Part shown: positions 1,428-37,056 of the stretch, in pieces
Layout of the letters: the number at the start of each line of letters is the position of its first letter
Numbering within the stretch: position 1 is the first letter of the stretch
Position numbers and translations under genes: made by a program
IMG/VR virus record: IMGVR_UViG_2529292830_000018
Strand: one strand, 5' to 3'
Source: a virus
Taxonomy: Duplodnaviria; Heunggongvirae; Uroviricota; Caudoviricetes
DNA: 42,618 nucleotides
The notes under the pieces: generated by a model
What the model was told of the DNA's origin: nothing
Seen by the model: only the letters and a program-made list of their open reading frames with translations
Databases searched by the model: none

Positions 1428-3173
1428 GTGGGGATTTTTTTACTAGGCCGCAAGTTCGAAGGATCAAGCTTACTTTTTGATAAGGGACGCTTAATTTTAC
1501 AGAACAGCGTTGATGGAAATGTCTTCCTTGTAGTTGAGAAAGGAGGAAATCGAGCGTTTCTTCATACTGGTGAAAAATTTATAGATTTTGTTAGAGTTGG
1601 GCACTTGTCACATTTGAAATGCTATCTCTCACGTGAGAGCGACAGACTTTTATACTGCGTTTCATCATTAGGTGATGCTATTGAGAAGACAGTAACAGCA
1701 AACAGAACAAAAGCAAGTGGATGGGAAACATTTGATATGCTTCCTGCAAAAGACTTAAGCGAATCATCCATTAATCAAATAGAAATGCTTAAGGGAATAT
1801 ATTTTAAAAATGATGACTTAACATCTGTTTTCAACAGAATTGTTAGATCAGATTTGATTGACAAAGGAAGAACGATTGAAAAGCTAATTGAAATAATGAG
1901 CATCGACGATAAGGCATATATCTCTTATCATCTATCTAAAAACATCAGTGAATTAGCAACGCTTTCTGATATTTCAGGTGATGCGCTATTTAAAGCATTT
2001 GTTTCAAACCTAACCAACTACAGCAAAAAAATATCCGTCATAGATGAAAAACTTGATTTTTTATCTAAGCTTTCGAACCCAATCATTTCTAAAAACAGCT
2101 GGGTTGAACTAATTCATAATTTAAGAAAAATATCTCCACCAAAACATAAATCATGCATTGTTGCAACATGCAAAAATGAAGGTGTTTATCTTGTTGAGTG
2201 GATTGCTTACCATCTAAGCATTGGATTTGATGCAATATTTATATATTCTAATGATAATGATGATGGTTCTGACGAACTACTTAATAACCTTCATAATGAA
2301 GGAATCATATACTACATAAAAAACATTGTTGGAGATGGTGTTAGTGCACAAAACAAGGCTTATGCTCATGCACTAACAATTAACAAGGAAGTTCTAAATT
2401 ATGAATGGAGTCTTTTCATTGATATAGATGAATTTTTTGTTTTAAACGAATTCATGTTTTCTTCCATCACTGATTATCTAGACTGGCAAAACAAAAATGA
2501 AACTGACGCAATTGCTTTAAACTGGATGTTTAGCAAACCAGTTGAAAATAGCGACTGGATAAACAATCCAATCACTAAAAGATTGCCATATACTAATAAA
2601 GAAGCAAGCGCTCATATCAAAACATTTTTTAAGCCTCACAAATTCTCAGGCTCAACACCTCATTTCCCATTGTGCAATAGCAATTATAAGTTCGCATATA
2701 GAGACTCTTCAGGTAACATTCATGAAAAGTCAATCACAAAAAATGATTTATCATTTTCTAACAAACCACAAAACTCACACGCTTACATTATTCATTACTT
2801 CAATAGAAGTATAGCTGAGTTTATTTGGAAATACTCTAAAAACAGAGGTGATCACCCAAACACTAAAAGCGGAAACGACTTTACAGAACACTTATTTCAG
2901 TTCCTTAACTTCTTCACATCATCATTAGACTCACCACGGTTCGTGGAGAATGAATCAATTGCTAAAATGACTGGTGTTATTGATTCAAAAATTAGCGAAA
3001 TATTAGCAATCGAATCGATACAAATTGCGTATGAGAATGTTAAGAACAGGACAAGAGAGCGTTATGAATTAATCGAGCCTTTATTTTGGGAGTATTTAAA
3101 GGAAAACATCAACTCAGAAAAAAATAAAGACTCAATTTCAGAGTTTATATCTAGATTTAACGAAAAAGCTTAA
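1428..3173 (+). CDS. Glycosyltransferase-like protein (GT92/DUF23-like central domain), strongly AT-rich
   Basis: 581-aa uninterrupted ORF in very AT-rich DNA; motifs CIVATCKNEGVYLVEWIAYHLSIGFDAIFIYSNDNDDGSDELL and LFIDIDEFF resemble GT-A glycosyltransferases of the GT92 type. Track start is GTG at 1428 preceded by GAGGGG; true start uncertain. Confidence 0.5.
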   Translation: MGIFLLGRKFEGSSLLFDKGRLILQNSVDGNVFLVVEKGGNRAFLHTGEKFIDFVRVGHLSHLKCYLSRESDRLLYCVSSLGDAIEKTVTANRTKASGWETFDMLPAKDLSESSINQIEMLKGIYFKNDDLTSVFNRIVRSDLIDKGRTIEKLIEIMSIDDKAYISYHLSKNISELATLSDISGDALFKAFVSNLTNYSKKISVIDEKLDFLSKLSNPIISKNSWVELIHNLRKISPPKHKSCIVATCKNEGVYLVEWIAYHLSIGFDAIFIYSNDNDDGSDELLNNLHNEGIIYYIKNIVGDGVSAQNKAYAHALTINKEVLNYEWSLFIDIDEFFVLNEFMFSSITDYLDWQNKNETDAIALNWMFSKPVENSDWINNPITKRLPYTNKEASAHIKTFFKPHKFSGSTPHFPLCNSNYKFAYRDSSGNIHEKSITKNDLSFSNKPQNSHAYIIHYFNRSIAEFIWKYSKNRGDHPNTKSGNDFTEHLFQFLNFFTSSLDSPRFVENESIAKMTGVIDSKISEILAIESIQIAYENVKNRTRERYELIEPLFWEYLKENINSEKNKDSISEFISRFNEKA

Positions 3174-6527: not shown

Positions 6528-6625
6528 GTCGTTAATTCCTATGCGTGGTTTTACGATACCGAAGCCCTGACTGTTCCCGCAGTTGGGGCTTCACTGTTTT
6601 GATTTCTTTGCCGCATCCAAGCGAA

Positions 6626-32934: not shown

Positions 32935-33651
<717 letters not shown>

Positions 33652-33658
33652 CACGTAA

Positions 33659-34096
33659 ATGATTAAAGAACGTATTTCTTATATCATTCCGATTGCGATG
33701 GATGAAGGCAACCCAGTAACTCCAGTTCTTATCTATGAAATGGATAAAGACTCCCATGAAGTGGATCTATCATTTGGCGCTTTTTTTATCGGCCTTAAGG
33801 CTACAAAAAAATATTCCATAGGCATTGAGGTTTTCAATGCTCAAGAAATACCGATACCAATTGACACAAAACTGTACTCCAACCATAAGTTTTTTACGGT
33901 AGCAGAAGCCAACGATGGAGAAACCATCGTATCAACTTCTATGAGAATTAACTTCCCAAGGGTGAAAATTATCAAGCCTGGGATATTCGAAGTTAGAGCA
34001 TCACTGGTTAATCCTGATAAAGGCGAAGTAATTGATGTAAAAAGTTCGTTTTTTGACGTGAAGATAACAGGATCAGTTCGCGATGAGTTTAGATAA
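33659..34096 (+). CDS. Hypothetical protein occupying the rexA position (no similarity to RexA seen)
   Basis: 145-aa AT-rich ORF starting 8 bp after the cI stop; no TM segment; predicted soluble. Confidence 0.5.
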   Translation: MIKERISYIIPIAMDEGNPVTPVLIYEMDKDSHEVDLSFGAFFIGLKATKKYSIGIEVFNAQEIPIPIDTKLYSNHKFFTVAEANDGETIVSTSMRINFPRVKIIKPGIFEVRASLVNPDKGEVIDVKSSFFDVKITGSVRDEFR

Positions 34097-34454
34097 CAAG
34101 GTTGCTCAGCTTCGTCCAAATCAAAACATATCTCGCCCAATTGGACACTATTCCACTGATGATGCATACTCACGGCATGGTGGAGGAAACGGCGGAGGTA
34201 ACATGCTTGAGGCTAGAGTTGCAAAGCTAGAGTCTGATGTTGAATACATCAAGCGCGATCTCGCTGAAGTAAAGTCAGATATAAAATCTGTAGATTCTCG
34301 TCTGTCAGGTATTGAGACAAGCATTAGCTCAGCAAAAATCACCATCAAGGCATCTGCGGTCGTTGTCAGTTTCGTGTTCGCATTTTGCGCCTACATTTTT
34401 GGAAGTTATGTTTCCAAAATCCTTGATGCCTTAAACGGACTCGTTCTTAAGTAA
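34083..34454 (+). CDS. Hypothetical coiled-coil protein with C-terminal transmembrane helix, occupying the rexB position
   Basis: 123-aa ORF overlapping the upstream ORF by 14 nt; alternative start at 34203 (GGAGGT-aac-ATG, 83 aa). Gly-rich stretch, amphipathic coiled coil, hydrophobic helix AVVVSFVFAFCAYIFGSYV. Confidence 0.45.
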   Translation: MSLDNKVAQLRPNQNISRPIGHYSTDDAYSRHGGGNGGGNMLEARVAKLESDVEYIKRDLAEVKSDIKSVDSRLSGIETSISSAKITIKASAVVVSFVFAFCAYIFGSYVSKILDALNGLVLK

Positions 34455-34461
34455 CACACAA

Positions 34462-34487
34462 CCCGGCCTCAGCGCCGGGTTTTCTTT
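34462..34487 (+). terminator. Rho-independent terminator ending the cI operon (tImm-like)
   Basis: Stem CCCGGC/GCCGGG followed by TTTTCTTT. Confidence 0.65.
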
Positions 34488-34643: not shown

Positions 34644-34713
34644 TAACCATCTGCGGTGATAAATTATCTCTGGCGGTGTTGACATAAATACCACTGGCGG
34701 TGATACTAAACAC
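34644..34713 (+). promoter_or_regulatory. oL operators and pL promoter (lambda type)
   Basis: TAACCATCTGCGGTGATA, TATCTCTGGCGGTGTT, TACCACTGGCGGTGATA; -35 TTGACA (34679-34684), -10 GATACT (34701-34706). Confidence 0.9.
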
Positions 34714-34955: not shown

Positions 34956-35339
34956 ATGACACGCAGAACTCAGTTCAAAGGCAATTCACGTTCTCGTCGT
35001 CGTGAGCGTTTAAAGGCAAAGGCATTAGCTAACGGCGTACTGGCCCGCGAAGAAGCAATAAGTTCAGAAGTATTACACCGCCCTACTCTAAGCAGAGCGC
35101 AGATTCAGGCTAAAGGTACTCACAAAACGCCTGAGCGCATAGAAGACGCTAAGCCAATTAAGTTCATGGCACAGGACGTGATCTGGCAACAGAAAGAATA
35201 CAGACGCAATCTGGAGAGAGCGGCCATTGTGTACGCGAATGAGTTTGGACATAAGCAACCAGAAACTGGTGTATGTCTTCCAAATGTAGCTCTTTACGCA
35301 GCAGGATACCGGAAATCAAAACAACTGACGGCGAGGTAA
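34956..35339 (+). CDS. N-type antiterminator (P22 gp24-like)
   Basis: 127 aa; Arg-rich motif GNSRSRRRERLKAKA; C-terminus LPNVALYAAGYRKSKQLTAR resembles recalled P22 gp24; RBS AGGAGG. Confidence 0.75.
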   Translation: MTRRTQFKGNSRSRRRERLKAKALANGVLAREEAISSEVLHRPTLSRAQIQAKGTHKTPERIEDAKPIKFMAQDVIWQQKEYRRNLERAAIVYANEFGHKQPETGVCLPNVALYAAGYRKSKQLTAR

Positions 35340-35341
35340 TT

Positions 35342-35704
35342 ATGGGTCAAGAAGAAAAATATGAGCTTAAAAAGCTCATTGGAGAAGACGCCATAGAAGA
35401 AATTGCAGCATTAACAACAGCTATAAAGAATATTAGGTATGCGCTAAATACGCTTATCTCCTCATGCGACAAAAATAGCAGGGAATTTTTGATACTTGGC
35501 GCAGCTCTAGGAATAGTTGATGCGGCAACGCTTCACCTAATTACTCATGACGATATTCTTATTGAGCCGTATGAAACATTACTGCTTGTCAGGCAAAAAA
35601 TGGCTGATGCCGCAGCAAATGGAGACCTTCAACTTTACTTCGACTTAAGGAAAGTATTAAGGCGAATGGTCAGAACTGAAGGAGATATCCCCCTGACAAA
35701 GTAA
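35342..35704 (+). CDS. Hypothetical protein
   Basis: Start at MGQEEKYELKK (ATG 35342) preceded by GAGG, right after the N stop; the track ORF is longer (from 35273). Confidence 0.45.
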   Translation: MGQEEKYELKKLIGEDAIEEIAALTTAIKNIRYALNTLISSCDKNSREFLILGAALGIVDAATLHLITHDDILIEPYETLLLVRQKMADAAANGDLQLYFDLRKVLRRMVRTEGDIPLTK

Positions 35705-35734: not shown

Positions 35735-36229
35735 TTAATAATTTGTCAGCGGCGGAACATATACAGGCTTAGGGGCTGGCGCTCTATACATCCGGTATTC
35801 ATTCTTACAGCGAGGACATGAATGCACAAAGAATCCATTAGATTTTATAGTAACCGTGCTTGGTTGAAGTATCGATATTTTATGTTCGCCGAAGCAATGT
35901 GCACAAAGGTTATGCTGCTGAATAGAAGGATCGGAATGACTCTTAGGTCGATACACGACAGAACCACCTTCAGTTGTATGAAGTTCATAATTCTCAGCTT
36001 GCACAACAAACATCTTGATTTTTCTATTTTCATCTCGAAGCTTCATTGCGATCTCCTTCTCGGCCTGATAAAGGCCAGAGAGCTCCGCATTAAGCATCTG
36101 TAAGTCAGTTATTCTTTGGTGTAGATCACCAATAGCTTTAGCGATAACAGCATCATCTCTGGTTTCTTTTATTGTCTTCAGCAGATCATAAGCCTGTTTC
36201 GCGGCAGTTATACCAGATAATACATCCAT
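35735..36229 (-). CDS. Hypothetical coiled-coil / zinc-ribbon protein, transcribed against pL
   Basis: Start at MDVLSG (ATG 36229; track allows GTG at 36238); C-terminal CAHC...CPRC motif; AT-rich; opposite in orientation to all neighbours. Confidence 0.5.
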   Translation of the reverse strand: MDVLSGITAAKQAYDLLKTIKETRDDAVIAKAIGDLHQRITDLQMLNAELSGLYQAEKEIAMKLRDENRKIKMFVVQAENYELHTTEGGSVVYRPKSHSDPSIQQHNLCAHCFGEHKISILQPSTVTIKSNGFFVHSCPRCKNEYRMYRAPAPKPVYVPPLTNY

Positions 36230-36245
36230 ATAAATCACTCTCTTA

Positions 36246-36290
36246 CTGTAGGGGTAAGAGGATTTTACTATTTTTCTCGCTGTAGGGGTA
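36246..36290. promoter_or_regulatory. Direct repeats CTGTAGGGGTA flanking a putative promoter
   Basis: Identical 11-mers at 36246-36256 and 36280-36290, 34 bp apart, in the divergent intergenic region 36230..36432. Confidence 0.4.
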
Positions 36291-36432
36291 CACGAGAACC
36301 ACCGAGCCTGATGTGGTTAAAAGACAGGCACAATCTTTACTACCGCAAGCCACGCAGTGAAATTGGTGTGACTTGTGTTGGTCGCCAGAAAATGAAATTA
36401 GGCAGCAAACTACTTATTTGAGAGGAATTAAT

Positions 36433-37056
36433 ATGTCATCAATCCGCTTAACTACGAGAATGAAAGAGGAAATCGCTCGTAACGCTTTAATTAAGTCTGG
36501 GGTCTTCACTGAACTTGAAGAAGTAACAAAGTTAAAGAACCAGCTTGCACTTGACGCCAGAGTTATTGCGTTTGGCGGTAAAAAGAAAACTGAGGAAGTG
36601 GATCAGTTATCATCCAAGTTGGTAGCTATAAGTGAAGAACTTGAAAAGATGGGATGTTCATTTTACTCATACGATGTTAGTTCTACTTCAATTTATCTGA
36701 CTGTATCTGGCAGAAGGGTTGGATGGCATTCATATGGGAAAGACGGCAACGGCGAAGATATATTGCTCCCTACTCCGACCAAAGATAAATGCATGTTTAG
36801 CGCAGAACACGAAATAACAAAAAGGTTTGATGAAATCTGCGCATTGCAACAAAAACTTGAAGCCAAGAAAAAGGATATCGAATCAAATGTATGGGCTGCT
36901 TTGAACTCAGTCACAACAGTTAAGCGACTTATTGAGGTTTGGCCTGAAAGCAAAGAATTGCTACCAAAAGAAGCAGATAAAGCAAGTACAGCACTTCCTG
37001 CTTTACGGGTAGAAGATTTGAATAAGATGATTGGACTTCCTTCCGAGGCCGCATAG
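36433..37056 (+). CDS. Hypothetical protein
   Basis: Start at MSSIRLTTRMKEEI (ATG 36433) preceded by GAGGAA; 207 aa; own terminator. Confidence 0.5.
   Translation: MSSIRLTTRMKEEIARNALIKSGVFTELEEVTKLKNQLALDARVIAFGGKKKTEEVDQLSSKLVAISEELEKMGCSFYSYDVSSTSIYLTVSGRRVGWHSYGKDGNGEDILLPTPTKDKCMFSAEHEITKRFDEICALQQKLEAKKKDIESNVWAALNSVTTVKRLIEVWPESKELLPKEADKASTALPALRVEDLNKMIGLPSEAA

Follow-up and report, generated by a model that had tools for sequence, protein, structure and literature searches.

The pL operon of IMGVR_UViG_2529292830_000018, a 42,618-nt stretch of viral DNA (hereafter the window), raises the question of what a single gene lying antisense to all of its neighbours does there, and how it is controlled. 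The initial annotation, drawn from the letters alone, had described a 164-aa open reading frame (ORF) with a private, repeat-flanked promoter and had read it as an exclusion gene expressed in the lysogen, a moron in the slot where lambda and P22 carry sieB. Judged from sequence, this reading is supported by homology. We consider it quite probable that the ORF is an abortive-infection protein of the Rip1 family (HkaP clade), a prophage accessory gene in the sieB slot that would be expressed from a sieB-type promoter and shut off by a sas-like antisense RNA. The grounds for this seen in the data are the reality of the gene, its family membership by sequence and fold, the homology of its upstream cassette and the covariation of the RNA encoded on the other strand.

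The window is a P22-like prophage with CUS-3- and HK620-like virion genes, and the early-left region around the ORF contains the following features:

32938-33651, plus strand: lambda-type cI
34679-34707, plus strand: pL-like promoter, upstream of N
34956-35339, plus strand: N antiterminator gene of the 933W/HK620 type
35342-35704, plus strand: hkaQ, 120 aa, phrog_7374 (an entry of function unknown), convergent with hkaP across a 30-bp gap
35735-36229, minus strand: the ORF, hkaP (rip1-like CDS), 164 aa, stop codon at 35735-35737
36433-37056, plus strand: Nmad5-family gene (PF18757, E 1e-71)

The antisense position within the pL operon is thus as first described, every neighbour of hkaP in the window being on the plus strand, and transcripts from pL and N cross hkaP in antisense orientation and the sas-like region beyond it in sense orientation. 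In the ORF listing the frame begins at a GTG (35735..36238, minus strand, 167 aa), while the ATG at 36229 gives 164 aa; we placed the start at 36229 because the family alignment shows a conserved N-terminus beginning MD. Of three details in the initial annotation that had to be corrected, two concern the gene itself: the ORF does not directly follow N, as hkaQ lies between the two, and it is not AT-rich, with a GC content of ~41% vs 38-44% for its neighbours. No convincing intrinsic terminator was found 3' of hkaP. The adjoining hkaQ, which has no Pfam match, occurs solely with the E. coli hkaP allele of ~99% identity, not beside diverged homologues or HK446 Rip1, so that the idea of hkaQ as a dedicated partner or antidote of HkaP, as a general feature, was dropped.

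Several other elements of this prophage deserve mention in their own right. A mosaic junction at ~36330-36346 joins the hkaP module downstream to an Nmad5/Stx-phage-like segment, as opposed to the cIII-kil region in HK620; the Nmad5 ('nucleotide modification associated domain 5') gene of the pL operon belongs to a segment that is common to Stx phages and not part of HK620. At 6529-6595 (plus strand) we identified a sar antisense RNA (Rfam RF00262, 76.6 bits, E 2e-14), from which it follows that the prophage has a P22-type immI (ant) region besides its lambda-type cI. The rexA/rexB slot right after cI is filled by two plus-strand ORFs (33659-34096 and 34083-34454; phrog_5893 and phrog_6136), the second with a coiled coil and faint XhlA-like matches, and these are followed by a strong terminator-like hairpin at 34460-34481. 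Both ORFs are candidates for further lysogen-expressed genes.

A first concern is whether the ORF might be a chance or decaying frame, and the 11-bp repeat upstream of it a chance duplicate. E. coli NCCP 13717 has a prophage that matches the hkaP region at 100% identity, with the product named 'hypothetical protein' by PGAP, and the repeat duplication in this one window is just modestly beyond chance when taken alone (0.24 matches expected; at least two in 2 of 100 shuffles). Against this stands the conservation of the gene. HkaP of coliphage HK620 (AAK28864; also HK629_042 and HK630_040) is 98.8% identical in protein sequence to the ORF, with 98.8-99% nucleotide identity between the window gene and those of HK620, HK629 and HK630 and the same N and hkaQ neighbours in HK620. 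A search of 5.8 billion proteins returned 34 homologue clusters at 45-99% identity, all full length and all from Enterobacterales (Salmonella, Serratia, Yersinia, Pantoea, Hafnia, Edwardsiella, Sodalis and Enterobacter), and the family alignment has 21 invariant columns. An exhaustive profile search of 1.84 billion proteins gave 2,132 50%-identity clusters at E<=1e-3, nearly all of 150-175 aa. Among 5,426 complete E. coli genomes the gene is present in 66, with O26 Shiga-toxin and porcine ETEC strains among them. Both repeats are kept in loci retrieved by protein similarity alone, and since both copies are conserved in these independently found loci, the repeats are clearly non-random. Because of this conservation we regard the chance or decaying frame as refuted, its probability being vanishingly small, and the degraded, unconserved remnant for which the initial annotation had allowed gave way to a gene kept at full length across at least eight genera.

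The position of the gene varies among homologues: it follows N in Serratia and HK446, and lies between Q and holin in Yersinia and Enterobacter, antisense to all neighbours in every enterobacterial context examined. Six loci were matched by a protein-alignment scan of genome contigs. The authors of the HK620 record had labelled HkaP a 'putative superinfection exclusion protein' in 2001. Our literature search on hkaP gave no relevant match; a paper on Tai tail-assembly interference was considered as a source and set aside, HK620 being used there as a challenge phage only.

What kind of protein is HkaP? An AlphaFold model on the family alignment (pLDDT 85.3) shows helices at residues 3-22 and 26-78 and, after them, a small beta domain with four cysteines, in agreement with the N-terminal helical part and C-terminal CxxC...CxxC domain that had been read from the sequence; C109, C112, C138 and C141 are among the invariant columns and unchanged in 35 homologues. 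A structure-based homology search had been proposed as a check, and Foldseek against the PDB returned a single significant family, 9OOX ('HK446 Rip1 in complex with T6 small terminase'; E 4.9e-7, TM 0.56/0.69). The HkaP family profile matched PDB 9oox_L, 'ring interacting pore 1 (Rip1)', with E 9.3e-18 over residues 16-150. By BLASTP, HkaP matched HK446 gp37 at 4e-14 and Pseudomonas JBD30_030 at 2e-15, and reciprocal tblastn searches led to the same phage set. When the HkaP alignment (A1) was compared with an HK446/JBD30-type alignment by hhalign, 157 columns were aligned at 99.8% probability (E 3.3e-28). HkaP, HK446 gp37 and JBD30_030 are each 164 aa long, share the architecture of helices and a Cys4 domain, and have the four cysteines invariant in both clades. 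HkaP therefore agrees with Rip1 in sequence, in fold (N-terminal helices plus C-terminal domain) and in being a single prophage gene. By contrast, no model of Pfam, NCBIfam or PADLOC-DB v2 (2023) matches the ORF beyond sub-threshold noise (SprT zinc ribbon, Cas10 fragment etc.), and its PHROGs match, phrog_1244, is an entry of function unknown.

A 2026 review of the work of Patel et al. (Nature 651:1060) describes Rip1 as a defence consisting of one protein, encoded by a prophage. Some ~12 copies gather on the small-terminase ring, an 11-mer, or in Pseudomonas phages on the portal; late in infection the inner membrane is then disrupted by a pore made of the N-terminal amphipathic helices, and Rip1 alone is not toxic. 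The HK446 member shares with hkaP the prophage origin, the antisense position directly after N and an identical 100-bp upstream cassette, and its GenBank note reads 'similar to HK620p16', which is HkaP. JBD30_030 is likewise antisense between its neighbours, an upstream DUF1804+HTH gene and a 550-aa gene with no Pfam match, both annotated as hypothetical. From their position these neighbours might be the small and large terminase genes, in which case they fit the placement of P. aeruginosa Rip1 between terminase subunit genes given in that review.

HkaP nevertheless differs from the characterised Rip1 proteins, HK446 gp37 and the JBD/D3112-type protein of Pseudomonas, in forming a separate clade, with 27-28% identity to them, and in an N-terminus that is ~11 residues shorter than that of HK446 Rip1 and less hydrophobic (maximum 19-residue hydropathy 0.6 vs 1.28). 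Pore formation by HkaP is not guaranteed on account of this N-terminus. The same two differences would suit a protein that shares the Rip1 fold and acts otherwise, either by binding the rings and blocking packaging with no pore, or as a zinc-ribbon coiled-coil regulator of RNA polymerase or nucleic acid in the manner of DksA/TraR; the antiterminator gene (N or Q) that adjoins the hkaP-type gene in every enterobacterial context seen could also be cited for the latter. DksA/TraR-type proteins are superficially alike, being small, with a long helical hairpin and four cysteines, yet HkaP has no sequence match to them (no zf-dskA_traR match in Pfam at E<=0.1, nor any Pfam match to a DNA-binding family), and the structural searches gave no such match above generic helical ones. 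The homology with Rip1 is full-length and includes the helical N-terminal half. Moreover, the Pseudomonas relatives, between their DUF1804+HTH and 550-aa genes, have no antiterminator beside them, which is why we take the adjacency to N or Q to reflect insertion sites and not function. A different mode of action is accordingly improbable in our view, and we file HkaP as a divergent clade of the Rip1 family, for which ring binding and pore formation are suggested by analogy.

A shorter relative was seen in the Shigella flexneri (L008 4067-4276) and E. coli (L009) chromosomes, where a 69-aa ORF encodes the Rip1-like C-terminal CxxC...CxxC domain only, at 31% identity, ~1.6 kb from an IpaH-like LRR gene. 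This ORF is probably a decayed remnant.

The predicted control elements of hkaP lie in the DNA upstream of it. The 100 bp before the start codon are identical in HK620 and HK446, although the HK446 protein is 28% identical to HkaP, and the same cassette can still be recognised in loci of Serratia, Yersinia and Phlomobacter retrieved by protein similarity alone. These 100 bp are also the upstream region of sieB in lambda (nearly identical) and P22, which bears out the sieB slot proposed for the ORF. On the window, the promoter side of the cassette comprises:

36230-36255, minus strand: predicted hkaP 5' UTR, 26 nt, with +1 near 36255 via the aligned P22 sieB RNA start
36238-36244, minus strand: Shine-Dalgarno-like AAGAGAG in the hkaP leader
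36246-36256: proximal repeat, CTGTAGGGGTA on the plus and TACCCCTACAG on the minus strand, where the hkaP transcript is predicted to begin; part of hairpin B in the pL-strand RNA
36262-36267, minus strand: -10 element TAAAAT, aligned with TAAACT of the annotated P22 sieB promoter
36280-36290: distal repeat, which coincides with the -35 position of the predicted hkaP promoter and supplies the loop of hairpin A in the pL-strand RNA
36285-36290, minus strand: TACCCC at the -35 position, transferred from the P22 sieB promoter

The two direct repeats are exact copies, as first reported, with CTGTAGGGGTA occurring exactly twice in the window at a distance of 34 bp start to start. The P22 record annotates a 'promoter, sieB RNA start site' as TGTACCCCTACAGCGAGAAATCGGATAAACT; on the cassette, the -10 of this annotation falls between the repeats, its -35 position is covered by the distal copy and its RNA start coincides with the proximal one. 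Other cassettes have TATAAT, TAAAAT or TAATAT at the -10 position. By homology to the annotated P22 promoter, we propose a minus-strand promoter for hkaP at this place, and the promoter and start position given in the initial annotation agree with the P22 features by alignment. The claim of a private promoter stands in so far as TAAAAT lies between the repeats and is homologous to the P22 element; a strict sigma-70 consensus scan of the minus strand gave no -35/-10 pair and no recognisable -35.

Repeat invariance among the IMG/VR loci described below is uninformative, as their retrieval demanded both repeats and would make the argument circular. More telling are two variant cassettes. Escherichia phage PhiR29_2, which was found by protein similarity, has TTGTTGGGGA instead of CTGTAGGGGT in both repeat positions, and a divergent second cassette, in L128, has GACTGTGGAA in both, while the repeat spacing of ~33-34 bp and the downstream helices are unchanged in each. 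This concerted change suggests that the two copies must match each other. In PhiR29_2 itself (L018 2779-3507), the annotated 242-aa CDS swallows the sas/sieB-promoter-like cassette (L018 2885-2983), and translation of this Rip1 homologue probably begins near 2990-3001 instead.

The repeats are also part of a structured antisense RNA region on the pL strand, which the initial annotation had not foreseen. In P22, sas is a 127-nt antisense RNA in the pL direction, known from RNA-seq of P22-infected cells, and the plus strand of the window aligns with it from the proximal repeat onward, with one base differing in the last 73 nt. The P22 sas sequence matches 140 phage records. The corresponding elements, all on the plus strand, are:

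36237-36336, plus strand (pL direction): sas-like antisense RNA region, covariance-model match 102.4 bits
36239-36261, plus strand: hairpin B of the sas-like RNA
36274-36279 paired with 36293-36298, plus strand: hairpin A, whose loop is the distal repeat
36299-36302 paired with 36313-36316, plus strand: helix S2 (CCAC/GTGG), crossing S1
36306-36310 paired with 36325-36329, plus strand: helix S1 (GCCTG/CAGGC), crossing S2

No Rfam family matched the cassette at a threshold as loose as E<=10. A covariance model was built from 29 diverse cassette copies, and 99 copies were found in the loci examined; the MAFFT alignment of the cassette (A2) had put helix arms out of register and was realigned with the covariance model (A3). 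Hairpin A, S2 and S1 are paired in 96.3% of cells, with changes on both sides in 10 of 15 pairs, in an alignment that was fitted to hairpin A and S1 and in which many rows are closely related. None of 500 shuffles reached the observed pairing values, and slid controls were 30-43% paired. Both S2 and S1 (window 36299-36329; A3 columns 80-119) covary, for example as CGGGA/TCCCG, CCTCA/TGAGG and GCCGGG/CCCGGC, and they may form an H-type pseudoknot at the 3' end of the sas-like RNA. The strand of the RNA is indicated by G·U pairs, 27 on the pL strand vs 3 on the gene strand, with 32 vs 56 unpaired cells. Hairpin B had no common register and was folded sequence by sequence, with a window mean of -7.9 kcal/mol on the pL strand vs -3.6 on the gene strand. 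The strand assignment is comparative, through this G·U asymmetry, and not based on the single sequence, because the window's own sequence folds equally on both strands (-27.5 and -27.4 kcal/mol) and its shuffle z-score is better for the gene strand (-3.2 vs -1.5 for the pL strand). No separate plus-strand promoter for the sas-like RNA was recognisable in the window or in P22.

Could the repeats instead be operator sites, at -35 and +1, for a DNA-binding regulator of the minus-strand promoter, with the hairpins incidental? Copies over the -35 position and the +1 have classic operator geometry, the promoter is without a -35 consensus, the concerted change in the variant cassettes would also suit an altered regulator specificity, and the better z-score is that of the window's minus strand. 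However, the cassette moves between phages with differing repressors and is followed only by the defence gene, be it SieB, Rip1 or other; the helices on either side show covariation, with G·U pairs in excess on the pL strand; and an RNA over precisely this region was detected in P22-infected cells. With no cognate regulator travelling with the cassette, we judge operator sites to be rather unlikely. In our preferred reading, the distal copy, exposed in the loop of hairpin A of the pL-strand RNA, would find its complement in the proximal copy at the single-stranded 5' end of the toxin mRNA and would nucleate antisense pairing there.

The likeness of hkaP to the SieB/Esc/sas system of P22 and lambda extends to genomic slot, orientation, promoter region and antisense-RNA region, and both SieB and, by analogy, HkaP are put as lysogen-expressed abortive-infection functions. 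The proteins themselves are unrelated, SieB being a PF14163 membrane protein whereas HkaP has neither a PF14163 match nor a hydrophobic segment. In P22, sas reportedly shifts the translation of sieB away from SieB and over to Esc, the inhibitor of SieB. Ranade and Poteete are said to have found in 1993 that P22 unable to make this switch kills itself. In hkaP and the other Rip1-type genes no conserved Esc-like internal start is evident; the candidate Met73 was rejected, being conserved in the HkaP clade, missing from HK446-type Rip1 and not preceded by a Shine-Dalgarno sequence.

To see what else follows the cassette, we scanned IMG/VR with the pattern ACCCCTACAG-N(18-32)-CCCCTACA, which gave at least 120 stretches. 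Of 69 distinct cases among the matches listed, 18 have a next gene that fits the HkaP profile (11 HkaP-type and 7 HK446-type); most of the other following genes among these listed matches are SieB relatives, of which six representative subfamilies match PF14163 (E 1e-13 to 1e-29), and a few encode 80-105-aa proteins with no Pfam match. As the cassette precedes both kinds of gene, Rip1-type genes replace sieB behind a shared cassette. The term moron, as applied initially, is thus apt with respect to a promoter (by homology) and to a slot that holds SieB, two Rip1 clades or other genes, with the Q-holin interval as a further site, but no convincing terminator of its own and no deviant base composition were found. 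The small proteins with no Pfam match that follow the cassette (L019 ~1140-1390, L108 ~690-930, L124 and, with the GACTGTGGAA variant, L128 640-800) include an 80-83-aa family (MDIPDMVFP...), a 105-aa membrane protein and an MSDRLSPLKY... protein, and are possible new exclusion genes.

These observations permit a broader and more tentative proposal, which we hold to be possible although it is not our leading expectation: the ~100-bp sieB-promoter/sas region would be a portable control module that prophages set before abortive-infection toxins of unrelated kinds, with six SieB subfamilies, two or more Rip1 clades and the 80-105-aa proteins as its cargo. It would encode on the pL strand a conserved antisense RNA with two hairpins and a possible H-type pseudoknot, and would keep its repeats matched. 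Both repeats would change together in variant cassettes because the distal copy must stay complementary to the toxin mRNA.

How the system may work can be sketched as follows, the expression pattern, the trigger, pore formation and the antisense control of HkaP being what we infer. In the lysogen, a weak sieB-type promoter, with its -10 between the repeats and its +1 at the proximal repeat, would yield a low level of HkaP that, by analogy with Rip1, should be harmless alone. Ring-shaped late proteins of an infecting phage (small terminase or portal) would be bound by the C-terminal Cys4 domain, and the N-terminal helices of ~12 HkaP copies would then form an inner-membrane pore, so that the cell dies before progeny mature. 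The sas-like RNA, complementary to the hkaP 5' UTR and start codon, would arise only on derepression of pL. Upon induction, or superinfection by a phage with the same module, N-antiterminated transcription from pL and the sas-like RNA would silence HkaP and provide self-immunity; the shut-off would thus come from convergent transcription together with an RNA covering the 5' UTR and start codon. Self-tolerance might come from simple silencing of the Rip1-type gene or, alternatively, from rings of the resident phage that escape recognition.

This kind of system was already known, with the sieB promoter and sas described in 1993, HkaP annotated in 2001 and Rip1 characterised in 2026. With the ORF being a Rip1-family HkaP and the promoter a sieB promoter/antisense-RNA cassette, the hkaP observation is largely explained by known biology, and the window allele is an uncharacterised divergent member. 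What may be new is the re-use of one structured antisense/promoter cassette for several unrelated abortive-infection genes, and the co-variation of its direct repeats. A gene that RefSeq names 'hypothetical protein' in 66 complete E. coli genomes hereby gains a likely function and mechanism, and Rip1-type and sieB genes appear as interchangeable cargo behind one regulatory cassette. The cassette also serves as a search handle, one motif scan having given more than 100 loci, including small genes as candidate exclusion factors. Finally, it offers a testable idea of how a prophage escapes killing by its own sensor of terminase or portal rings: if the module works as proposed, any resident phage that has it would be protected from its own toxin while it is induced, which would explain how prophages tolerate Rip1.
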